A stretch of DNA of 63,807 bases, counting the filler, from Sphacelaria rigidula (taxonomy: Eukaryota): the NCBI GenBank assembly GCA_964200075.2. It is 9 parts of 9 records of this genome, joined end to end, with 100 filler letters (N's around TTAATTAATTAA, not from the genome) between each part and the next. Parts side by side here need not be neighbours in the genome. Positions count along the whole stretch, not along the records: positions 21,306 to 28,306 come from CAXNAA020017015.1; 8 more parts are not named here. One strand, given 5' to 3'. This document shows, in pieces, positions 7,003 through 63,598 of the stretch. The notes under the pieces are model-generated. The model saw only the letters and a list, made by a program, of their open reading frames with translations. It made no database searches and had not been told where the DNA came from. Each line of letters starts with the position of its first letter. Position 1 is the stretch's first letter. Both the position numbers and the translations under genes were made by a program.

Positions 7003-7102
7003 NNNNNNNNNNNNNNNNNNNNNNNNNNNNNNNNNNNNNNNNNNNNTTAATTAATTAANNNNNNNNNNNNNNNNNNNNNNNNNNNNNNNNNNNNNNNNNN
7101 NN
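7003..7102. other. Artificial contig spacer
   Basis: 44 N + TTAATTAATTAA (six-frame stop linker) + 44 N. Confidence 0.98.
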
Positions 7103-7499: not shown

Positions 7500-9150
7500 A
7501 GGGGGGAAGGGGTGGGCTCTCATTTGTTGCTTGCCTTCGTCATTTGACTGTTGACCACGTATCCCCTTCGAGGCGGAGCACCGTTTCTACTTCCAATAGA
7601 CATGCTCCAACATTTGGGCGCTCATTGCGTCTTCTTCATGTCTCACGCAAGATCATTTTACATACATTATCCCTGTTTCGCCGTCTGTGGCCACCATCTA
7701 TCGCCTATTATAGCAATCATTCTCTCGCCGTCTGATATACCCAACGACTTCATGCTACATTAGGTAAGTTCCTCAATCCCCTCAAACACGTCCCGTTCCT
7801 TATTGTTAGTTCATGTTATGCCACAGTGTGAGTTCTACCCCCCACTTGTTTCGCCACAGGGACAATTCTGTGCGATCACCTCCTCCTCCAGTCGACTACC
7901 GGTATATATCTTCCTTCTTTTTGGAGGGTTCAGATCCCCGACCCGGAATCGCACCCTCAACCTTTTCGCGTGGACCATCGGGCCATGTAGATTTGTTTTC
8001 ATCGCTATTACTCCTCTTGACCCCCCGTATATCTATCTTCAGGTGCTCTTTCTCAGCCACTTTCCGTCTCAGAGTTTGTTTTGCCCTTACTGTTATCAGG
8101 TCTCTTACTTTTGTCTTGTGCCCTCCACATTCATCTATGAACATGATCTTGTCTTGGTGTTCTTGTACATCTTCCCATATTTTTTCGAGTGCCTCATCTC
8201 ATCTTAATCCAACCTGCCCTTTCGATCCTGTTCTCCATACGGCCCCGACAACTATGGCTGGCAACCTCTTTCCTCGCATGCTCCTTACGTTATGCTGTAG
8301 TTTCAACGTTCTCGGTACTCTATTTGTTGCGCGTGTGAACATCCCCAATTCTGATGTTGATACTGTATTACCCGTCGTTGTTGGGCATCCAATATTTTCT
8401 GAGCTGCTGCCATCTGTATTGTTCCCGGCTGGTTCACCAACTTTGCGTTCCCCTTCATTCCCCTGGACATCCTAGCTGCGTAGCTTCTCCTGCCTGTCCG
8501 GTATCCCGTGTATCCGTACCCACATACGATTCATCTCGTCATCTAATTCTCCAGTTGTTTCATCAACTACATATTTCTTCATCCCCTTTCTTGTATTTTC
8601 AATCATCTCGGTCACCTTTTCTTGCTCAGTGTACCTCTCCCACCCTACCGCAGTTTCACTCTGTGTACATTTTGCGCGGAGCGCTCTCCTTACTCTTTTA
8701 GCCTTCTCTATTTCTTCACTCCACCACTTCAATACTCGTTTGCATATTATCACGTTCTTTCCCATGACCTTCCTTGCTGCGGTCTTGACCAATTGCTCCC
8801 ATCTGTTCATGATCTTCGTTCCTGCCCGATCCTTTTTACATCGGTATTGGCTGTACCTACGCTATCCAAGAACTCGGAAAAATTTGATAAATTTTTGGTC
8901 CTCTTTTCTTGAGACCCATGCTGTTTCACTCCTACTTCTACTTCTACTTCTAGTTTGTCGATTCCCTCCCCAATTAGCTTCCCAACCCACTTATTTTTCT
9001 CATATCTCCCGTCTGTTGACTGCCTATCCACACTCGGCTGTGATCAATACTTCCTACGTCCGCTGCGCAAACATGTACTTCTATTTCCTCATTATTCCCA
9101 CAGTCTACCCCCATCCACACGCTCCCCTATTCTTGCCTCCTGTCCCTTCT
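7500..9150 (-). mobile_element. Degenerate APE-type LINE ORF2 fragment, RT core not evident
   Basis: Minus strand shows the endonuclease end (VGSIDHSRVW, ~9030-9060), the EN-RT linker (WEQLVKTAARKVMG...KWWSEEIEKAKRVRR), a C-terminal region and the shared 3' tail at ~7520-7620. Confidence 0.75.
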
Positions 9151-9629
9151 TCTATTCCCTTATCCATGCGCACTCTCTCATCCTACCCCCCCCCCGTCTC
9201 ATTCCGCGACTATGTATATACACACATATATATATATTATATAAATGTATAGGTCGCGGTTATTTGTTCGGCTATTTCTAGTATTTTGCTACCGTCCGTA
9301 GCGAATCCGCAAACGTTCCACGACCATATTCTAGCTTTCTTTTTCGAACCACTATCCACCTTGATTTTCGTCTTTGGTTCCCTCTCGATCCATTTTAGTC
9401 TTATTTTCTCCTGCACGACTCTTCTCTTTATTTCCAGTTCGGCCCCAAGTCTGTTTGCTTTCGGGCGCTAATTCACCGTCACGTTCCCTTCAGTATATTT
9501 ACGTGTTCCTACTTTCCCTCACCCCGGTATATCCAGGGGCTACGTTTGAGGTTCGCCATTTCCTCAGCTTTTCAAACCCTTTATTTTTCTCTCAAATATG
9601 CCGACGGCGAAGGCGGGGGAAGCGCGTAC

Positions 9630-14104: not shown

Positions 14105-14204
14105 NNNNNNNNNNNNNNNNNNNNNNNNNNNNNNNNNNNNNNNNNNNNTTAATTAATTAANNNNNNNNNNNNNNNNNNNNNNNNNNNNNNNNNNNNNNNN
14201 NNNN
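14105..14204. other. Artificial contig spacer
   Basis: N44-TTAATTAATTAA-N44. Confidence 0.98.
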
Positions 14205-14271
14205 TCGTGGGCGTGCGGGCGTTGGTGGTGTGGGGTGTGGTCTTGTTTGGCCCGACGCGCGAGGGGGGCGC

Positions 14272-14314
<43 letters not shown>

Positions 14315-21205: not shown

Positions 21206-21305
21206 NNNNNNNNNNNNNNNNNNNNNNNNNNNNNNNNNNNNNNNNNNNNTTAATTAATTAANNNNNNNNNNNNNNNNNNNNNNNNNNNNNNNNNNNNNNN
21301 NNNNN
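21206..21305. other. Artificial contig spacer
   Basis: N44-TTAATTAATTAA-N44. Confidence 0.98.
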
Positions 21306-21559
21306 TTTTGTTTTGTGGTGGTTGTGTGATGTGGTGGTGGCGGATACTCATTTGTTGCTTGCCTTAGTCGTTTGACCATGGACCACGCATCCTTTTCGAG
21401 ACGGAGCACCGTTCCGGGTGGGGCACAGGGGCAATGACAGGGGATGAGACTCAGTCCACGCGAGAGAGCCCTTGGTGCGTGCCGTTTCTTCATCGCAACA
21501 TGCCAATCGATTTGGCATCAGCTGTTTTGTCTGCTTTCCGCACGATTTTGCGTGCTCGA

Positions 21560-21965
21560 CTACGAACGAACACAATGTGAATTGGGTGTCAAGACTTCTG
21601 TAGGAGGTGTATATAATGGGCAGAAACATGATTTAGTGCACTGTAAAAGGCATAGATGTGGACTATATAAGGAGAAGCGAGACGTGTTAGAGGGGAAAAT
21701 ATGGGAAGTAAACGAGAGCGTTATGAAATCATTCGGAACATTACACAGTAGCGAGAAAATCGAGATACTAGGAGATAGATGGCATGGCCGAAGACGGCGA
21801 AACAGGAAGGGGATAAGATATGTGTAGGGGTTTTGTGTACGTAATGCACGGAAGAAATGTAGTGAGCGCGCAAATGTTTGAGTTGCTTCTACTAGGAATA
21901 GGAACAGTGCTCCGTCTCGAGAGGGATGCATGGCCAATGGTGAAATGACGAAGGCAAACAACATG
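21560..21965 (+). mobile_element. LINE 3' fragment (ORF2 C-terminus and tail); an inverted short tail lies at 21345-21415
   Basis: H..CGLYKEKRDVLEGKIWEVN...ILGDRW followed by the shared tail. Confidence 0.75.
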
Positions 21966-22244
21966 AGGACGCGTAAATAACGTGCATTTTGCTGCTCTTG
22001 TGGCCGTTTCCTTTATACTAGAACACATGAAGAATGACGCACACGAGAGCAACACTCACTCCAGCCACTCACTATATGAGTTCTACTCTATATTGTCTTT
22101 CCCTTGCTCAAAAAAATAAATCAAACGACCAACCTCCATCCATCCATCCATCCATCCATCCATCTATCCAATTAATTAATTAATTAATTAAATTATTATT
22201 ATATATATATTATTATTTATTGCTTTGCCACCGGGGCAATTCTA

Positions 22245-22567
22245 ACAGCCGATCATCGAAATCGAGGACGGAGCTTTTCATTGAGGATGAGAACCCGGAA
22301 GATTAAGATCGTCGTACCCACACCAAATCTTCGAAATATGGTTCCATTCTTTCAGCTACTGGTAGTTATTGACAACTGCTACATGCCCTACAAATTTGGG
22401 TTTCGATAACCGAAATATTGGCGTCCTGAGTGAGAAAACAATTTCGGGGAATTTCGGCTTAGGAACACAGAGCGCCGATATTTAAAGCGTACTTCGAAGA
22501 TTTGGTGTGGATACGAAGATCTTAATCCTCCGGGTTTTCATCCCCAATAAAAGTTTCATCCCCGAAT
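22245..22567. mobile_element. MITE with ~75-bp TIRs
   Basis: GAGGATGAGAACCCGGAAGATTAAGATC...CCAAATCTTCGAA (to 22335) is inverted at 22493-22567. Confidence 0.8.
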
Positions 22568-22582
22568 CGTAAAATCCCATGT

Positions 22583-22690
22583 CGTTCCGCCCTCGCCCGA
22601 GGGTCCTCGGTGTGCGTTGGGTTAGGGTTAGGGTTAAGGGTAAGGGTAACGATACTTGTAAAATTGTGTCAACCATTCTAAAACGTACCC
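22583..22690 (+). repeat. Dispersed repeat with internal TTAGGG tract
   Basis: Near-identical to 24322-24421, and related in reverse to 24605-24690 and 41150-41230. Confidence 0.75.
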
Positions 22691-22920
22691 CAAAGATAGT
22701 TAACCAGCCTCCGTCGATACGCCGTCTAGCTGATAATCGGAAGTGACATCCCAGCCTAGGCTCCCGATGGTAAATTCAAGGCTTATGCCACCTGATCACG
22801 AATATTTTACGTGCTAGTTCGAATGAGAGATTTTGATGTGGTCAGCAACGTAATTGTAGCAAGCATTGTTTGAACAATTCAACCATACTTTATCGATAGC
22901 CACCCAATACGTGGAATCGG

Positions 22921-23322
22921 GAAACCCCCATGTCATGACGAAGTTATTCCGATTATCATGTACAATGAGAGGGTACCCTACCGGTCGAGTGCCATTCCCA
23001 GGAATCGAACGCTCACCGTCGTCAGTTTTTCCCTTCATTGAAAAACATTTCGCGCTCCGGACCCCAAGGATTGGATTTTCATTGGTTCCGATTATTTTCC
23101 GAGCCGTCGTTGGGCTATATGTGAAACCCCCATGTCATGACGAAGTTATTCCGATCATTATGTACAATGAGAGGGTCCCCTATCGGTCGGGTGTCATTCC
23201 CAAGAATCGAACGCTCACCGTCGTCAGTTTTTCCCTTCATTGAAAAACATTTCGCGCTCCGGACCCCAAGGATTAGATTTTCATTGGTTCCGATTATTTT
23301 CCGAGCCGTCGTTGGGCTATAT
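22921..23322 (+). repeat. Tandem duplication, 2 x ~202 bp
   Basis: GAAACCCCCATGTCATGACGAAG starts at 22921 and 23123. The overlapping ORF translations are near-identical. Confidence 0.92.
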
Positions 23323-23757
23323 ATTATGAAATGGTTGCACACACAAACGTCATGTTGTTGCCAGGTGGCTGGTGCAGGTGTACGATGGTCGTTGGCATTT
23401 TCTCAGACCAAGGAAAGATTCGAGCCGGAACTTAACGATTGGGACCTACGTTACAGACCGCGAAGATGTCAACAGTCTCATGCGATAACGAACTCGAACT
23501 GCTGTGACCCATGACGCGTCGTGTTTTTTCTTGACATAAAGAGGCGAGACATCACACGCGAATCATCAACCGGCGCATTTAGCCTTGATACTCTTTCGTC
23601 TCGGGCTCGTGAATCCTATCTTAGGGGCATCTGCTGACAATATATTTCAGTAGAGTTTACCAGCATTGGGCTTCGTTTTAGAATCGTTGGTATCACTTGA
23701 CTTGCGTCTCAACCACGAGGATCGGAATTTTAGTAAGGCTGGTAGTCCCGTGTGCTC

Positions 23758-24228
23758 TGTGACGATTTATAGGCAACCGATTAGACTACCGTGCAGTCAG
23801 CACTGACTGTACGGTAGTCGAATCGGTTGCCTATAATCGTCACAAAAGCTAGTCGTGGCAGTTCGATCCCCGTCACTTTCACTCCGAGGAGGGCGACTCC
23901 CCTTGCCAGCGCTGTTCAACTATTGGTGCATACGGTATCGGTCTAATGTTGCCACACGTATCCATTCGGAGTTACTCATCTCCCCCACTCATTTCCAGAG
24001 TGTGTGCACTGGGGTCCCTAGCAGTCAACCCGGGGACTGGACTCTCCCCCATCACCCTCTTTTATTACCGGAGGTAGGGTTTTCCTCTTTTTCTTCAAAG
24101 AAAGTGCGTTCGACGGGAATCGAACCAGCGACTAAGTTTTTGTGACGATTTGTAGGCAACCGATTAGACTACCGTACAGTCAGCGCTGACTGTACGGTAG
24201 TCTAATCGGTTGCCTACAAACCGTCACA
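23758..24228. mobile_element. Non-autonomous TGT...ACA element (Ginger-like) with palindromic, tRNA-like TIRs
   Basis: 4-bp TSD GCTC (23754-7, 24229-32). Palindromes at 23758-23844 and 24141-24228. B-box-like motifs at 23860-23870 (+) and 24115-24126 (-). Confidence 0.85.
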
Positions 24229-24604
24229 GCTCCTCGCGTGCACAGCACGCGTTCTCGTTTAAATCCGCGCCACAGGCGTCGGTTTGGGGTCTACCAAACC
24301 CGCACTTTGCTGAGGGAATATGTGTTCCGCCCTTGCCCGAGGGTCCTCGGTATGCGTTGGGTTGGTGTTAGGGTTAGGGTTAGCGATACTTGTAAAATTG
24401 CGTCAACCATTCTAAAACGTAGCCTACCGACGATTAAGCCGTAGACCGCGGTGCGGGTAGTCCATCTGGATCACGCTTTGTACATAATTTTTGCAAGTGA
24501 AAATTGATGCCGATTCAGCAGGTGACCTACCCCCGCGGTCTAAGGGAGGGGACCTAAAGAAATGTTCGTAGATAATGGTTGATGGGGAACATCACGAAAT
24601 GTTA

Positions 24605-24870
24605 CAAACTAACACTAACACTAACACTAACACTAACCCTAACTCTAACCCAGACCCAAGGCGCACGAGACCCTCGGACGAGGAGGGTGCATAGATTCTC
24701 CCAGGCAAAGTGTGCGTTGGCAGCCTTCAAATCGTCGCGGCAGGCGCCGATTTCGACAAAAACACGTTCTGGACGAGCTGGGTCCACTGCTCACCTGCCC
24801 CAAACCATATTTTTTCAATAAATGTTTCAAGTCTAAAATCGAGTAGGTATCCCTGTCAACCATTGTGTAC
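24605..24870 (+). repeat. Dispersed repeat with (CCCTAA)-like tract; second copy at 41150-41395
   Basis: Shared GCAGGCGCCGATTTCGAC..AAACACGTTCTGGACGAGCTGGG.CCACTGCTCACCTGCCCC. Confidence 0.8.
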
Positions 24871-25901
24871 GAAAATTTCTCTGGGTCTACTGCTCTGAGA
24901 AGGGTCAACTAGCCTCTTATTATGGTACAAGCCAACGTGTCGTGTAACATTTTGAAAGGTGCATGTGATCGCTGTTCGAATAAATTGGTCACTCTCAATC
25001 ATATCTTCAACTCTCAATCTCACAAAAACATTGTTGTGAGTGAAAGAACAAGGTATACAATTTCAAATGAAGCTATTGTGATAGCCTCAATACGAGTGCC
25101 AAAAGCTAGCAGAAAGCACTTTCCTCGGCTTTCCTCAGGCTTGGAGAAAAACAATGTCGGTCTCTTCAAGTCCCTAGGACAAATCGTAAAGGACAGACAG
25201 TTTTCCAGAATCTAACCATCAAGCTTTCGGAGCTACGAACGGCTCTACGAACGACAACCGACAGACGCTCGGAATTGAAAGTGCCCTCTGGCCTTCAGCA
25301 GCGAAGAGCAAAGGGGGAATGCCATGGCACGCGGGGGTGCTGCAGGGAGCGGAGAGGTTCATGATCTCTTGGCACAAGATCGAGGAAGAGACCAGCCGAC
25401 TACGTGCGATTAAACGGGAGCTTTGGGGAGAGGAGGGACGAGATGGAAGAATACATAACCAGTTTGTAGCGAATTGATAATGATGGAAGTGGCAGCAGCC
25501 CTATGATCTACCCTTGTATTATTTTTCTATTAACTGCTGACTCCAACGCACCCCTCTCCCCGAGGTGGTGTGTGTTGTTGTGTGGTGCTTGTTCCTGTTA
25601 TGCCTTGTACATTCGTACGCATAGCTGTCCCTCCAGAGGCACAAGGTTAGAACTTTGCGACTCTTATCGCTTTGGCTGGTGATCGGAGCTCTTGAGTTTG
25701 TTTACCTTCCTGTTTGTCCTCGCGTGTAGAGTGGACCAATGGGCCCTGCCTCCAGAGCCCGAATGGTCGCATATGACATCGGAACTTAGAGGGCTAGCAG
25801 TAGTCCTGTTCCTTTCCTCCTTTTTTTTTCTCATTTCTTTTGTTTCGGGTCTGTGTGAATTGTTTCTGGGTCCGATTTTATTTTATGTTTTTCGGTTATA
25901 G

Positions 25902-26010
25902 ATTGCCCTGTGTCCAGGGCGCTTCCAACTTCAATTTGTTTCGGTGTTTGTGACGTTGCGATCTTGAATTGCGGCGGTGAAACCGGAGCGGTCTCGGCTG
26001 GGCCCTTGTT
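25902..26010 (+). repeat. Dispersed repeat; second copy at ~48653-48760
   Basis: TTGCCCTGTGTC.AGGGCGCTTCCAA.TTCAATTT..TTCGGTGTTTG shared. Confidence 0.75.
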
Positions 26011-26934
26011 ATAAGTGGCTCTAAACTGAGCGTTTGCCGCAAGCACCCGGGGTATGGTGATGTGTCGTTGCGCCGAAGTGCAAAGTTATATTGAAGAATA
26101 AATTGTTTTTGTGTTGTAGCTGTCGCCGTACATTCGCAAGGGCCCGCAGCAAGCCGGCGCTGAGACGCGAGTCGTTTCCCGGCAAATTCCCGACAGGTCG
26201 TCCAGCACTAGTCCCAGCCACTACCTTGCTGTTTTCAAGTACAAGTGCAGGACTTGTTTCCCGGTATGCCATAGACTAAAACTTTCAAGCTGCTGCTTCT
26301 CGGACAGACAGGAGACACCGTCAAGCGTCAAGCAGCTGTACGCTGGGCCGGCCCCATATTTGGGAATGACGGCACGACCCCCCCCCCCAGGTCTCCCAAA
26401 CCTCATTCTGGGGCCGTAGGAGGGGACGGTGGGAGGACCCTCGGGTACCCTATTTGAGGAGGGGGTTACCCCCGTGACCGATGGGTGATGGCGATAGTAG
26501 TTGTTGTTGTGTGTGCGCATGGGTCTTGAACGCCCATTCATGTATTTAAAATATGCTGCTTGCTGCTGTGTTCGACACTGCGTACACTGCGTACCAACCG
26601 CAGCGTGACGACTTCGGCGGTACTACCTACTTGCTCACTGCACAGCGGCAGGGTGCAGGGTGACAAAGCAAACCGCAGGACGTCACATCCTTAGCCTACC
26701 CCTGTCCTGCATTGATTTCACGCTAACCTATGCAGTTCGCCACAGCATGAACGCAGCCGCTTGTACTTGCGGCCAACATACACGCGGGATATCACCTCTT
26801 GCTACGCGCTATATCGCTACGCCACATTCTGTAAAGCTGTCCATGTTGCAGCTACAGCGTTCGTTTGCCCCAGGTGGCGCACGCAGGAGTGAAACGCCGC
26901 CTCCACCGCTGTGATGGCTGCCTACCTAGAAAAG

Positions 26935-27030
26935 CTCCTGTGTTGGCCTTCCTCCTGTGTGACCCCGTGTGACCCCGGCTGATGCGCCCACATATATCGA
27001 AAGGTGGAGACCGGCGTCCAGAATAGATGG
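26935..27030 (+). mobile_element. 5'-truncated SINE tail
   Basis: Matches 41755-41836. An inverted copy lies at ~40608-40680. Confidence 0.7.
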
Positions 27031-28306
27031 GGCGAAAACACTCACGAAACAATATGCGCAGTACACTTTTGACATCGCGTTCGTACTGACTGTAGATATC
27101 TTTGTCCAGGGTCTGGTACATTTCCACATGTATGTAATGTTACTCAGTGAGATCATGAAACAATCCGCAAAATCTGGGCGAACTGCAGGTGAGGCAATCG
27201 AAATATTCACCTGCATACTCTGTTCCAGTGCACTGTAAGTTGATATCGCTAGAAGGATACAACTATAACCACGTTGCCGGCTGCCAGACTGTCGGGACGT
27301 AGGATCCACTAGCATTGCTATTGCCTGTACGGGGATGTTGCCCCCTTGTCGGGTACGTGGGGAAGAGCCCGTGGTAGAACGCAGTGGTCGCGTCAAGCAG
27401 CCGCACGCTGGGCGTTCTCACTCAAGACCTCGGTTTGAAGGATAATACTAGGTAGGCTGCAGCAACTGCTGTGTGGCCAGGTGCCCCTTGGAGCAGGGTG
27501 CGTTAGGTTTCTGTTCGACAAAGTCCCCCCCGGAAAACCGGAATCAATAGGGGTTTTAGAATAGAAAATAAAGCAAAAAAGAAGTCGCAAGAGTCGAGTC
27601 GCAAAACACCGCTTAGTCGAATTTTTACCCGGAGCGGAAACCAATTTCACGAAGTGAAATTGGAACCCTATCTTGGGGTAGTTAGCCTGTAACCACGGAA
27701 GGCGCCCGCATCAGATGCCCAGTACAGAGTATCGGAACGATTTTGAATGCCCAAGACAACTGCAACAACAACAGCCACCATTATTCCCACCTATACGAAA
27801 CGTTTCCATCAACGAGTTTTCGATTCCAAAACACGAACACTGCACCTTAATTATCTGAAATACTACTCCCTGTATATCCACAAATGTTTCTTCTTTCAGT
27901 AGTGTACTTTCCACACCGACAATAGATTCTATTGTAAAACAATGTACGGCGTACAGTATGGAATCTGTTGTCTACTGCAATGAACAGCAAATTGTGCGAA
28001 ATGACGTTTAACTCCGAGATGAGGTTCAAGTGGGCAACCCGACTTGCGAACTTTTTGTAGTAGAAGTACTGAGGACAAGCTCTTATTCAGAAGAAGTGAC
28101 CTGTGGAGGTGAACCCGTGACGCGTCATATTTAGTACGTCGAAGAATGGAGAGAAGTAAGTCGGGTGAGCACTCTTGTTACTCTACGCCACAAGGAAAAA
28201 AGTGGAAGCGCACGGATCCCATCTCCTGCGATAACCCCCCCCCCCTCGGGCTGCGCCAGCACGAGGAACAAACCCTCGATCATGCCCGACAGGGTGGCGG
28301 GGGGGG

Positions 28307-28406
28307 NNNNNNNNNNNNNNNNNNNNNNNNNNNNNNNNNNNNNNNNNNNNTTAATTAATTAANNNNNNNNNNNNNNNNNNNNNNNNNNNNNNNNNNNNNN
28401 NNNNNN
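28307..28406. other. Artificial contig spacer
   Basis: N44-TTAATTAATTAA-N44. Confidence 0.98.
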
Positions 28407-28660
28407 CTGGAAATGAGTGGGGGAGACGAGTAACTCTACGGTACAGTGAGAGTGACAATATTAGAGGTCCTGATTGCAGTCGATAGAGCGCTGGCAAGAG
28501 GAGTCGCCCTTCTCGGAGTGAAAGCGATGGGGATCAAATCCCCACGACTAACTTTTGTGACGGTTTACGAGACAACCACCACGGTTTAAGAGACAACCAA
28601 CTAGACTACTGACAAGTCAGACGTGTCAGTAGTCTTGTTGGTTGCCTCTTAATCCGTCAG
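28407..28660 (-). mobile_element. Diverged partial copy of the 23758-24228 element
   Basis: Reverse-complement similarity to 23760-24000, including its own imperfect palindrome (~28556-28660). Confidence 0.75.
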
Positions 28661-29044
28661 CTTTCATGTGAGCTCAGGTAAGACGCGAGTATTCACAGTG
28701 GTTGAAGATGAAGAAATGGTGCGCGTATGCGCCAGTAATATTTGGTGGTCCCACTCATTTTGATGTATCATCTCACCTTTTGTGTGGAAGGAGCATGTGG
28801 ATGGTGTGTCGATCGGTCTAAAAGGAGCGGTCCAGGTGAGCCGCGAGTCTGTTGAGACATGAAGCCAACCATTCACCTCGGGTGATGAGCCGGTGGGATG
28901 TTTGAGTCCGGCTGAATCAAAGTGGGACATTATCATCGGGTGGTATCTGGGGTGCACTCCATAAAGAAACCGGTTTCGACAATGATATCACTACGGGTGG
29001 TCAATGATGGCGGAGGTCGAGGTGCGCTTCCCCTTGTTGGGTTG

Positions 29045-32942: not shown

Positions 32943-33155
32943 TGTAATGCGTGAGAGGACCGCGTGCTTGGAGGACTGCATCGGAATTTGAACATCCCCA
33001 CGATTATAGGGTTAGGGTTAGGGTTAGGGTTAGGGTTATGGTCAGGGGCGTGGTACCTGCAGGAACTGGCCCGATTGGTTTCGAAAAACATCGATTCTAT
33101 GGTGTTTTAAACTACGGCGCGGTCCTCCAAGCACGCGGTCCTCTCACGCATTACA
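32943..33155. mobile_element. TG...CA MITE with internal (TTAGGG)n, 5-bp TSD CATAG
   Basis: Same TIR in the opposite orientation. CATAG at 32938-42 and 33156-60. Confidence 0.9.
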
Positions 33156-35407: not shown

Positions 35408-35507
35408 NNNNNNNNNNNNNNNNNNNNNNNNNNNNNNNNNNNNNNNNNNNNTTAATTAATTAANNNNNNNNNNNNNNNNNNNNNNNNNNNNNNNNNNNNN
35501 NNNNNNN
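35408..35507. other. Artificial contig spacer
   Basis: N44-TTAATTAATTAA-N44. Confidence 0.98.
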
Positions 35508-55950: not shown

Positions 55951-56707
55951 TTGGCGAGCAAACAATTGAGGAAATGTAGGCTAGTGGACAATATTTCCGT
56001 ATTTCTTCGAAATTGATTTATGTTGCTCTTTCGCTTGAAGTAAAACAATTTCGACCTGAAACTTTGACGACAGGTGGAAATGGATCGATCAAACACCATG
56101 CCTAGGGGAGTATCCATTCTTGTTCGATCCCCAACGTATGGGTGGAGTTTCCGACCGCGGCAGCTCGGTAAAATTGATACGAATCTGGAAATAAATAACG
56201 ATTTAGGAAACCCCCCTAGGCATGGCCTGTGAATTCTCGATAGTTGTCTTTTGCCGCTGGTGAGGCAACTCGTGAACATTGCAAATTACAACTTGCTCGT
56301 CGAGTGTGCTACGAGCCATGTGAGTCCTCGTGGGGAAAGATTCTTGCTTGTTCAAGACGACTATTTCGACTTGCACGTCATGGTGAAACTAGAACCAAAC
56401 TTGGAAAGTGGCAACGCATTCGACTCGTCACTCATGTGGTGCCGGCTTTGCGTTATTTTGCTGATTAGATGATTGAATAAGCGATCGGTTGTCGCATGTT
56501 GGCTGGTTTCCCAGGAATATGGCTGTCGTCACAAGATAGGCGTTCCCAACGCGAGTAAGAACATGACCCAGTGAAGGAAACTGTCTGATTGGGGGCGGTG
56601 TACTCATGATTGGGGGTGTGGGGGGGGTTTGGGGGGGGGGGGGGGGGGGGGACCTCTTTTTTGTGTTGTTTGGCGGGGGGACCCTTACCCCACCACCCCC
56701 TTTCAAA

Positions 56708-56807
56708 NNNNNNNNNNNNNNNNNNNNNNNNNNNNNNNNNNNNNNNNNNNNTTAATTAATTAANNNNNNNNNNNNNNNNNNNNNNNNNNNNNNNNNNNNN
56801 NNNNNNN
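56708..56807. other. Artificial contig spacer
   Basis: N44-TTAATTAATTAA-N44. Confidence 0.98.
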
Positions 56808-58093: not shown

Positions 58094-58096
58094 GGC

Positions 58097-59436
58097 GCAT
58101 GCTGTCGCTTTGTCATATCCCAAGGAGGGGTATGAGGTGCTGATAATCCCAGACGCATCGGATCTACCCTGGGGAAGTTGTTTTACACAGGTGCCGGAGG
58201 ATGAGCTGGGCGGTACATTGGCGGTGGAAGACATGAGCCATGAGCCGATGGGGTTTCTTAGCGGAACTTTTCGTGGGGCGCAGGTTCGTTGGCCTATGGT
58301 GGACAAGGAAGGCTGTGCAATCGTAAGAACTTTCCGTAGATTGGAGTATCTTTCATGGGGTGGGGTACATATCTTCGCCGATCATCGTAACCTAGCATAT
58401 ATTTTTAGTCCCGAGGCGTGCGTTGCATCTGTGGCTAAGACTGCTGCCCAGAGGCTCGAGCAATGGAAGGCTGCTCGGGCAAAACGATTACTCCATCAGG
58501 CACGTTGCTGGTGAGCGCAACTGCTGGGGAGATATATTGTCGTCAAGGTGGGTAAACGTTCCGACGGTGTCTGCGCGTGCTGCAGCCGTGTTTGCGAGCG
58601 GTCAGCCTGATGAAACGCTGCCGTCGAAGAACGCTATTCGTGAGGCCCAAGAGCAGGCTCAAGCCGGGTTCGGAGTGATTGTTGCTGGAGCTCCTACGTT
58701 CGCAACAGCTGTTGGGCTGTAGACTCCGGGCAGCATTGTTACCTTGATTCGGTACATGAGTGCAGTGGGGAAAATGCATAACAGGCGTTTATAGGCTCGT
58801 TAATGGATGACGGGTCTGAGAGTATGATCGGTGGACTCCGTGATGTATGATGTTTGCATACGAGGTGCGCAGGCAACTTCTGGTTTTAACGAAGACTGCT
58901 ATTTGTATAACTGCTTGAGTCTTGGAGTCTCTGGAGCCCGTGACAGGGAGGAAGCTTCTGGAGCAGCACTTCGATCTTGTTCTGATTCCAGGTAGGTTTA
59001 CAGAGCGAGTTTCGAAAGACGGTGAGGGTTTATTTGGCGTGCATGTAGTATGGCGGAATGTGTTGTGGATCCCTCCGTAAGCCAAAGAGCTGTAAACACG
59101 CTTGATGGTGTGTGCTCACATAAAGGAGGCGGACCATCGAGTGCTGTGGCGACACTACAGCGGCTGCAAGAGTATTGCTGTTGGTTTCGGATGGAAGCTC
59201 ATGTGACAGATTGTGTGAAGAAATGCTTGCATTGTGTGGATTCGAAGCGGGTGAGACGGTCTCGCCACCACTAGGGGAGACAGTGCATGGCACATGGCCC
59301 GGTGAGATGATACAATTTGATTATCTGTACGTCGGCGAAAGTGGTCCGTTGGGCGAGAGCGGCCTGGATGAATGCGGCGGATACAAGTACATATTTGTAA
59401 TGATGGATGATCTGCGCAATTCCGTGTGGTTGAAGC
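58097..59436 (+). pseudogene. pol: Ty3/gypsy pol fragment: RNase H, integrase zinc finger and start of core
   Basis: PDASD..WG...EPMGFLSGTF...DKEGCAIV...FADHRNL. LQEYCCWFRMEAHVTDCVKKCLHC. IQFDYLYV...YKYIFVMMDD. Confidence 0.92.
58718..59002 (+). mobile_element. Solo LTR inserted in gypsy pol
   Basis: TGTAGAC...GTTTACA with GGGC/GAGC near-TSD. The pol frame resumes after it. Confidence 0.8.
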
Positions 59437-62004: not shown

Positions 62005-63598
62005 ATGGCAACGCGCAAGAAAGTGGGTGATGGCGATGCAAGCGAAGAGGTGAAGTTTAAGTTTACTGAGCTTATGCCTGCAGGATCGCTGAAAGCCCCA
62101 GAGTACGGACGGCATTTTAGCGAAAATGCGTCCCGACGTTTTAATCAGAAATACGTCGAGTATGAAGAGGCGATCAAAGTGAACAACAAAGGACGTAGCA
62201 TGCAGGCCGTCTCACTGACTGTTACTGAACTGGTGCCGAGGCACATCCCGTGCGTGTTTTGTCACGCGCGATTTTTGACGGATCTGTGCTCGCCGAAGAT
62301 GATCTCAAGGAGGCACTAGGCCGACATGCGAAATGTTGGTAGGATGAAGAGATTGATCCTTCAGTTGCTGCCGCTGGTGTGCGGAAAGCGTTGGCGGCCC
62401 GCAACGAGCAAACTGCAATGGGAAGAGCAGAAGGGCAGTGGGGTGCCCCTGGAGGAATTTTTTGCGGAGAATACTAGCGCTGAGCGTGCGTTCCGCGATG
62501 ATGCAGATTTCAAACCAGGACCCGCTCAAATCTTGACTCGGGAAATGTTGAATGAACTGACCCCCCCGAATTCAAAACTAAAGTCCTCAACATGTTGAGC
62601 ATGAAGGGGGGTGGAAAGAGGACCCTGGGCTTGTGTTTAACACGGCTCGGGAAGGAGCGGAGGCATGGAAGACGGTGGAAGCGGCGGATAAGCAGCGCCG
62701 TCAGCAGCCGCAGCTGAAACAAAGGAGTGGCAGCGGGACCTCCGGATCCAAGCGCGAACCAAATGGTGGAAAAAGGGCGACCGCTGGCAGTGAGACTGCC
62801 AATTCCAGGAAATCTTGGAAACCCGGCCCAAGCTATGCAGGTTGTTTCTCATGTGGAGACAAGAGCCACTTCGTGAAGGATTGCAAGCAGCAAAGCCAAG
62901 CTGCTGCTCCACAACATACTACACGTGGGCAGTCGAAAGCCGGCGACAAGCAGCAGCAACAACAGCAGCTGTCGCAGGGCCCTGGACAAGTGCCTCGCGG
63001 AGGGGGCACGAGTCCCGCCCCTACAAGGGCTGTCTTTTCAGCCGATGGACAAAGTGCTCCCAGCGGGGGGGCGACGTTGCCACCAGAACCAGTCGTTTCT
63101 ACTGGTGGCGTGCAGCAGACCATCTCATCGCACTCGTTCCCGCATTCGAACTCTGCGGCGGTGCCAGCATGGAGATCGCTCAAAGCGGGTGAGGTGTCAG
63201 ATTTTCAATCTGAGGGTCTGCAAGTAGATCACAAGGAAAGGTGGTGTCTTGCCGACTTGTCTGTCCCGAGTGCAGGGGCAAAGGGTGTTTGTCCGGTCAA
63301 GGCCATTTTAGACTCGGGATCTGGAATTACGACTATGTCAGTGGGTGTAGCGGTGAAATTACAAGCTATGGTTCCAGATGTTCGAGTGGTCACACCGATG
63401 GTTGATGAACAGCTGGTGACACTGGCTAACGGCAATGTTGAGCGCGTGAAGCAGAAAACTTACCCTGTCCGAACCGCTTTACACACCAGCTGGGGACCGG
63501 TTGTGCTGGACCGGTGTTCATATGCAGTCATGCCGGGTACAGATGATGTGATCATCATGGGGAGCCCTACGCTGGAGGCGCTGGGCATTGACGTGTAA
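62005..63598 (+). pseudogene. gag-pro: Gypsy gag-protease, frameshifted
   Basis: CFSCGDKSHFVKDC knuckle. Retropepsin KAILDSGSGIT...VIIMGSPTLEALGI. Confidence 0.88.

Follow-up and report, generated by a model that had tools for sequence, protein, structure and literature searches.

Our analysis of a 63,807-nt stretch of Sphacelaria rigidula DNA, hereafter the window, confirmed a 471-bp element (positions 23758-24228) with the termini TGTGAC...GTCACA. Its anatomy, its target-site duplication, an empty paralogous site, the high abundance of its family and matched changes in the paired arms of its palindromes were all observed directly. Our preferred reading, which we consider reasonably probable, is that of a cut-and-paste DNA transposon that is non-autonomous, has ends of the integrase type (TGTNR and a 4-bp duplication) and bears a relic or promoter of tRNA origin beside each terminal palindrome. 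In these terms it would be a MITE whose termini are palindromic and evolve in concert, and which contains promoter motifs of the tRNA type; searches for MITEs with A/B boxes or tRNA-related inverted repeats yielded no description of this architecture in the open-access literature covered.

The window and its features

The window is made up of nine pieces of 7000-7002 nt, with artificial spacers (N44-TTAATTAATTAA-N44; Table 1) between them, so that distances and neighbourhoods spanning the joins are meaningless. GC content ranges from 47 to 52% per piece, and the observed/expected CpG ratio is 0.97. The element lies within piece 4 (21306-28306). A second, diverged copy starts at 28407, which is the first base of piece 5; it is therefore truncated by the join between pieces 4 and 5, and for the same reason does not necessarily lie 4 kb from the element. 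Neither nhmmer nor blastn found a third copy within the window, and the family alignment was limited to these two copies, one complete and one cut.

A Pfam search of 199 translated window frames returned retrotransposon fragments only, all of them in piece 9. This piece holds an LTR retrotransposon fragment with an RT_RNaseH domain (58095-58511, E 8e-14) and a gag/aspartyl-protease-like frame (62582-63595) with 12 unnamed homologues of up to 54% identity; the Atlas returned generic retroelement clusters only. No homologues were found for the frame at 8476-9249. A dinoflagellate spliced-leader motif was also looked for and was absent. Upstream of the element, a 202-bp unit occurs twice in tandem (22921-23322, 96%) and contains a B box with one mismatch, CGTTCGATTCC, on the - strand at 23001-23011; this unit may represent a second tRNA-related repeat family of the genome. 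G runs of 47-50 occur near piece starts and ends (14263-14309, 42628-42677 and 56610-56646), and are probably not biological but artefacts of sequencing or assembly where contigs end.

Table 1. Coordinates of the element, its second copy and the artificial spacers in the window
Feature	Position	Strand	Remarks
Target-site duplication GCTC, left copy	23754-23757	.	Sequence; empty-site contig spacing fits
Left terminal palindrome, 87 nt, TGTGAC...GTCACA	23758-23844	.	Outer arm 23758-23801, inner arm 23802-23844
A-box-like TAGTCGAATCGG	23815-23826	+	Inner arm of left palindrome
T4 run adjoining left palindrome	23844-23847	-	Sole - strand T4 run within the element; putative function
Left subterminal part of the inverted repeat, non-palindromic	23845-23882	+	~70% like the right one; holds B-box-like AGTTCGATCCC
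B-box-like AGTTCGATCCC	23860-23870	+	33 nt after left A-box-like motif
Interior without inverted repeat	23883-24102	.	Belongs to very abundant core repeat
Right subterminal part of the inverted repeat	24103-24140	-	Holds GGTTCGATTCC, the only perfect B box of the window
B box GGTTCGATTCC	24126-24116	-	33 nt after right A-box-like motif
T5 run adjoining right palindrome	24137-24141	+	Possible Pol III stop; putative function
Right terminal palindrome, 88 nt	24141-24228	.	44-nt arms, no loop, one mismatched pair
A-box-like TAGTCTAATCGG	24160-24171	-	Inner arm of right palindrome
Target-site duplication GCTC, right copy	24229-24232	.	Sequence; empty-site contigs
Second copy, core part	28407-28556	-	Cut by join; 76% like 23845-23998 (154 nt), 84% over first 68 nt
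Second copy, terminal palindrome	28557-28661	-	Arms 28581-28618 and 28620-28657, 89% complementary
Artificial spacers	7003-7102, 14105-14204, 21206-21305, 28307-28406, 35408-35507, 42508-42607, 49608-49707, 56708-56807		

Palindromic ends and target-site duplication

An earlier note on this DNA had claimed TGT...ACA ends with an exact 4-bp GCTC duplication, and both are indeed present at the borders of the element. The duplication rests on the single complete copy, on both flanks of which GCTC is exact, and the spacing of empty-site contigs (see below) fits 4 bp. The two ends of the element are 94% alike and form terminal inverted repeats, with 80-nt arms at 93%. Inverted similarity continues inward of the palindromes for ~35 nt at ~70%, so that the whole inverted repeat spans ~120 nt at 88.3% (23757-23874 versus 24229-24112). 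The sole open frame of the element, of 102 codons (23837-24142), matched no Pfam family, and we regard the element as non-coding.

Sequence comparison and folding also confirmed the ~88-bp palindromes, loop-less or nearly so, that had been described at each end, including the 44-bp arms of the right one and their one mismatch. The left palindrome is slightly less regular: three of its pairs are mismatched, and it contains a 1-nt indel and a centre of 2 nt. Folded as single-stranded DNA, the right palindrome yielded -48.5 kcal/mol (z -17.8) and the left one -42.8 kcal/mol (z -17.2), with none of 200 shuffles as good in either case. A search of the whole window for hairpins with arms of at least 30 nt returned 11 pairs, namely the eight artificial spacers, one AT-rich low-complexity pair and two palindromes; the latter are the right palindrome of the element and that of the second copy, the left one being absent from this list. 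A degenerate palindrome signature matched exactly three palindromes in the window, against 0 expected. Assembly artefact was rejected as the origin of these structures, since both palindromes of the element are covered by contigs of three independent runs and the diverged copy shares the same build.

Several other identities were considered for these sequences and discarded. Scores for the microRNA precursors MIR5998 (40.1 bits) and mir-199 (30.1 bits) lie far below the respective gathering scores of 180 and 60 bits, and these matches were dismissed as generic hairpins. A ribozyme or retrozyme was rejected given that no Rfam match was obtained, and an introner reading was rejected because the main text of the introner paper contains none of the terms 'palindrom', 'hairpin' or 'tRNA'.

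The left palindrome is flanked by GCTC and AAAG, and the right one by TTTT and GCTC. Neither thus has a duplication of its own, whereas the outer flanks match, which indicates that the last move took the whole 471 bp.

Because each end is palindromic, the ends can also be read as direct repeats (79 nt at 94%, of the TG..CA type). Read in this way, the element could be a miniature LTR-type retroelement, TRIM/SMART-like, in which terminal direct repeats of 79-88 nt, TGT..ACA ends and a 4-bp duplication would reflect the integrase-mediated insertion of a reverse-transcribed copy; this would also explain the likeness of the terminal repeats, and LTR retrotransposon fragments do occur in piece 9. 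In LTR elements, a primer-binding site follows the 5' repeat and a polypurine tract precedes the 3' repeat. Inspection by eye in either orientation revealed neither a TGG-led primer-binding site nor a purine tract beside either repeat, the sequence that follows the repeats being AAAGCTAGTCGTGG or AAAAACTTAGTCGC. Moreover, the tRNA-like stretch beside each repeat is in sense orientation, not tRNA-complementary, and the inverted similarity running ~35 nt past the palindromes is not expected of direct LTRs. Although the duplication falls within the 3-6 bp that LTR elements produce (excerpt of PMC10045372), we hold a retroelement origin to be highly improbable and retain the reading of a DNA transposon.

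An empty site within a host repeat and the abundance of the family

To place the element in its genomic surroundings, contigs of four public runs were positioned on 23300-24700, with matches of at least 85% identity. Public runs with parts of the region bear a coded organism label or are designated as algae, marine, marine-sediment or protist metagenomes. The contigs revealed an empty site: one contig each in runs X1, X2 and X4 joins position 23693 to 24229. Each of these contigs contains 104 letters past 23693, of which 44 correspond to 24229 onward; the 60 letters left equal the length of 23694-23753, that is, the count expected without the 471 bp and one GCTC. They differ from the window at ~12-13% of letters and thus represent paralogues rather than alleles.

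The flank of the element is a moderately repeated sequence in its own right. Contigs in three runs join ~23397-23399 to 24444, and 23426 to 24434; from the former joins, the host repeat looks like an insertion of ~1 kb (23398-24443) within another repeat. The host repeat also encloses an inverted pair (23669-23689 and 24404-24424). Flanking the element at 24320-24438 is a dispersed repeat with short TTAGGG-like arrays (GGTTAGGGTTAGGG), which recurs 1.6 kb upstream at 22579-22704 with 87.5% identity, and another TAGGGT array is found in piece 5 (33007-33047). Along the stretch covered by these contigs, summed depth peaks in the bins at 24428-24568, where it reaches up to 1.2 x 10^6.

Summed word depth in X1 amounted to 2-5 x 10^5 in interior bins of the element versus ~1-2 x 10^3 in the left flank, with single contigs at depths of ~25-45. 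The summed depth of the interior is therefore hundreds of times that of the flank, which points to a high copy number. Taking summed depth, which is not itself a copy number, together with the two copies in 63 kb, copies of the core repeat probably number roughly on the order of 10^4. The depth profile of run X6, which is only guessed to be RNA, tracks those of the DNA runs and is uninformative on expression. Collectively, these data bear out the MITE-like nature proposed earlier for the element, namely a discrete, non-coding insertion bounded by terminal inverted repeats and belonging to a highly repeated family.

Scans beyond these runs gave no further copies of the family. Two scans of metagenomes with conserved 20-21-nt stretches of the core gave 0 matches and 1 match, respectively; the lone match, L004, was rejected as an unrelated, uninterrupted coding-like sequence with only the 20-nt pattern in common. 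Prokaryotic genomes (596 Gb, 20 specified bases) gave three matches in MAGs versus ~2 estimated by chance, and the viral collections scanned for the family gave none.

The palindromes are far shallower than the core: with matches of at least 85% identity, the summed depth of palindrome bins is 20-80 times below that of the core in three runs, and in X1 it falls sharply from ~1.6 x 10^5 at 24136 to ~6 x 10^3 at 24141. Many core copies may bear other palindromes, or none. Such a profile would suit a composite in which the 88-bp palindromes are minimal MITEs, each made of two 44-bp TIRs back to back as in Made1, that flank an abundant core with short inverted ends of its own (GTTAGTCG...), a transposase acting on the outermost ends having moved the whole as a macrotransposon; Made1 indeed documents that elements of two TIRs and almost nothing more exist (excerpt of PMC1784062). 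However, in both core copies of the window (2/2) a palindrome is attached at one and the same junction, CGTCACAAAAG(C/T)TAGTCG, and is oriented identically, and neither palindrome of the element has flanking repeats of its own. Low depth is also explicable by subfamily palindromes that are too diverged for the 85% identity threshold, at which the arms of the second copy, 56-62% like those of the element, would be missed. We thus regard the composite as unlikely and continue to treat the 471 bp as a single transposon.

tRNA-like motifs within the inverted repeats

The inner arms of both palindromes were reported earlier to hold an A-box-like motif followed ~33 nt later by a B box, at tRNA spacing and on both strands converging. 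We found these motifs where they had been placed (Table 1), with TAGTC(G/T)AATCGG as the common pattern of the A-box-like motif in the inner arms. GGTTCGATTCC is the sole perfect match to GGTTCGANNCC in the window, in which one-mismatch matches occur at chance level (18 versus 14.4). A pair consisting of TRGYNNARNNG and, after 25-45 nt, GGTTCGANNCC was found once in the window, at the right end of the element, versus a mean of 0.005 in 200 shuffles; with a looser B box, the same pair occurs twice in the 63.8-kb window, precisely at both element ends, versus a mean of 0.165 in 200 shuffles. The A/B-box pair is therefore unlikely to be due to chance. Furthermore, most family contigs, if not nearly all, read GG at 23859-23860, which turns the left motif into GGTTCGATCCC and thus implies a full B box in the family consensus at the left end too.

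The further claim that these motifs make up tRNA-like Pol III promoters fared less well: the motif pair is statistically unusual, as just described, but no resemblance to an actual tRNA emerged. ARAGORN with default settings called no tRNA or cloverleaf at the element, and the Rfam tRNA model gave no match at E<=10 in either 701 nt or 98 nt. Very lax ARAGORN settings produced six low-quality calls within the 800 nt surrounding the element and a single one within 394 nt around the second copy; among the six, one starts at the palindrome centre, with 4/7 acceptor pairs. Conservation of the boxes relative to their neighbours, compared among the only three ends available and hence on a tiny sample, amounted to 6/9 specified positions for the B box versus 10/10 for the adjoining junction CGTCACAAAA, a result that leans towards boxes no better conserved than the bases around them. 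All six arms retain the AGACTAC/GTAGTCT core of the 'A box' without change, even the outer arms, in which it cannot function as one.

We interpret the A/B-box pair, on sequence grounds, as probably a piece of a tRNA gene or of the head of a tRNA-derived SINE that was absorbed into the subterminal repeat; binding of TFIIIC or promotion of Pol III transcription by this piece may persist. Initiation by Pol III ~10 nt upstream of the A box would mean that transcription starts at the palindrome centre and would stop at the T run before the opposite palindrome, yielding a transcript with the inner arm and without the hairpin. A working MITE/SINE hybrid would go further, in that live inward promoters would generate convergent transcripts of ~260-340 nt pairing into dsRNA, or would serve as TFIIIC sites. 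This accords with the restriction of the A/B pair to the two element ends, with the only perfect B box of the window and its full counterpart at the left end in most contigs, and with the T4-T5 runs located exactly at the points at which either convergent transcript would reach the opposing palindrome, no earlier T4 run being present on the - strand. Nevertheless, the + strand carries three internal T runs (24060-24063, 24080-24083 and 24088-24092), the B box of the second copy has two mismatches (GATTTGATCCC), and the negative tRNA searches and the equal conservation of the 'A box' core in the outer arms also speak against live promoters. Altogether, we deem such a working hybrid quite unlikely; a tRNA-derived relic or promoter within a DNA transposon is the reading that we carry forward.

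Paired arms change together

The diverged copy at 28407-28660 had been noted to keep a palindrome despite sequence change. This observation is real, and matched changes are found in both arms. Arms are 89-98% alike within the element and 83% alike within the second copy, whereas likeness drops to 56-62% between copies, which indicates that the arms evolve in concert. Of the aligned arm positions, 24 show no change; in the second copy, 11 have changed in the same way in both arms, as opposed to 5 that have changed in a single arm. Such a ratio of matched to single-arm changes is not expected if two arms drift independently. Mutual correction of the arms by gene conversion or hairpin-templated repair may be responsible; another possibility is that every arm follows a transposase that is itself diverging. 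The second copy also contains, just inside its palindrome at 28560-28599, a 21-nt tandem duplication of the inner-arm end (1.9 units at 94%), which shows that the palindrome region is prone to local rearrangement.

The ends of a MITE are expected to be its best-conserved part. Here, conservation between the two copies is lower in the terminal palindromes (56-62%) than in the core (76-84%), which, along with the shallow depth of the palindromes, cuts against a plain MITE. Terminal palindromes followed by a short non-palindromic inverted part are also the build of parvovirus (AAV) ITRs, and an element whose movement or replication proceeds via hairpin ends, with one arm copied from the other at each round, would have palindromes that are perfect within a lineage and drift between lineages. 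Palindromes with no or almost no loop, arms that are alike within an element yet only 56-62% so between copies, the 11 matched changes and termini more variable than the core would all suit such a mode of propagation. Conversely, the exact 4-bp duplication and the empty-site spacing suggest staggered-cut integration, and searches of the window turned up neither a Rep/HUH gene nor any other. The terminal repeats of replitrons, the HUH transposons described from plants, algae and protists, are short and direct (excerpt of PMC10288648), and an identification of the element as a replitron or other HUH transposon was rejected on this basis. We accordingly give propagation through hairpin ends a very small chance, and cut-and-paste transposition with concertedly evolving ends is the reading developed below.

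Proposed mechanism and significance

From the features described above, we infer the enzyme class, the mechanism of concerted evolution and any transcription as follows. The 471-bp element would have entered an older dispersed repeat as a single unit, duplicating 4 bp (GCTC). Its ~120-bp inverted repeats consist of two parts, the 88-bp palindrome and then ~35 bp with a tRNA-type B box; the terminal 88 bp are understood as a 44-bp end module, starting with TGTGA, in two copies arranged head to head. A DDE transposase of the retroviral-integrase-like kind, which includes Ginger1, Ginger2, IS481EU and relatives, would act in trans, recognise the 44-bp module and make cuts staggered by 4 bp; the presence of the module twice per end, in mirror orientation, would suit a dimer. 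Concerted evolution, by gene conversion or by repair with the partner arm as template, would maintain the likeness of the four arms of one element, while those of different lineages differ strongly. The 199 translated window frames yielded no transposase or integrase, and no autonomous partner with the same ends emerged from the window or the public collections scanned. Given that GCTC fits neither Ginger1 nor Ginger2 targets and that no transposase was found, we do not assign the element to a superfamily.

A bolder combination of these ideas can be formulated, which we hold to be decidedly unlikely. A hairpin-templated process would re-symmetrise the loop-less palindromic ends of a ~10^4-copy family, such that the termini evolve faster than the body and yet stay perfect; concurrently, live Pol III promoters at the palindrome centres, with transcription stopping at the T run before the opposite palindrome, would produce convergent, fully complementary RNAs of ~300 nt that could act as a silencing trigger or constitute an RNA stage in the spread of the family.

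If the features of the two window copies were to hold family-wide, this would be a very abundant MITE that breaks the rule of best-conserved termini, with the paired arms of each end changing together while differing strongly between copies. It would then provide a test case for how eukaryotic genomes keep long inverted repeats and palindromes symmetrical, and would mean that a large marine eukaryotic genome is strewn with candidate TFIIIC/Pol III sites and with sequences able to form hairpins, both in their thousands. Should the boxes instead be dead relics, the element would be one more lineage-specific MITE with a captured piece of a tRNA-like repeat.

Comparison with known systems

The likeness of the ends to those of the Ginger/integrase type, pointed out at the outset, agrees with the description of Ginger elements, which have TGTNR termini, TIRs of 40-270 bp and 4-bp duplications (excerpt of PMC2836005). 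As in Ginger1 and Ginger2, the element has TGTGA...TCACA termini, a TIR (~120 bp) and a 4-bp duplication. Unlike these, its single known insertion targeted GCTC within TGCTCC, which is neither the CCGG/CCGT of Ginger1 nor the AT-rich RTATAY of Ginger2, and it has palindromic TIRs and tRNA-like boxes that the available part of the source does not mention for Ginger (PMC2836005); no Ginger1/Ginger2 transposase was found in the frames of the window. IS481EU elements also have TGT..ACA ends, with 4-bp duplications in several families and others of ~15 and ~25 bp, and are described only from parabasalids (excerpt of PMC10045372). The element shares with them the TGT..ACA ends and the 4-bp duplication, a comparison made by end features, with no protein involved.

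The A/B boxes at tRNA spacing, a length of ~300-470 nt and a very high copy number are reminiscent of tRNA-derived SINEs, from which the element differs in lacking support from the tRNA model and ARAGORN and a 3' tail (A-rich, simple repeat or LINE-derived), and in having long inverted repeats and a short exact duplication where SINEs have duplications of variable length. Foldback elements have long, structured inverted termini that fold back, with arrays of short subrepeats extending up to kilobases. In contrast, each end of the element is a single loop-less 88-bp palindrome.

Made1 has a TA duplication and mariner ends. This 80-bp palindromic MITE of Hsmar1, the source of hsa-mir-548, is built from two 37-bp TIRs around 6 bp and forms a stable hairpin (excerpt of PMC1784062), much as each 88-bp end of the element consists of two 44-bp modules back to back. 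Unlike Made1, the palindromes described here are the two ends of a larger unit, neither of them with a duplication of its own. MER6, in turn, is a cut-and-paste MITE with mariner ends that picked up a SINE V-domain, a part of a Pol III-type SINE (excerpt of PMC6887750), and thus offers a parallel to the MITE/SINE-type chimera that we propose to account for the tRNA-like boxes. The piece captured by MER6 is, however, as far as this source describes it, a conserved body domain, whereas the element would carry a promoter head in both of its inverted repeats.
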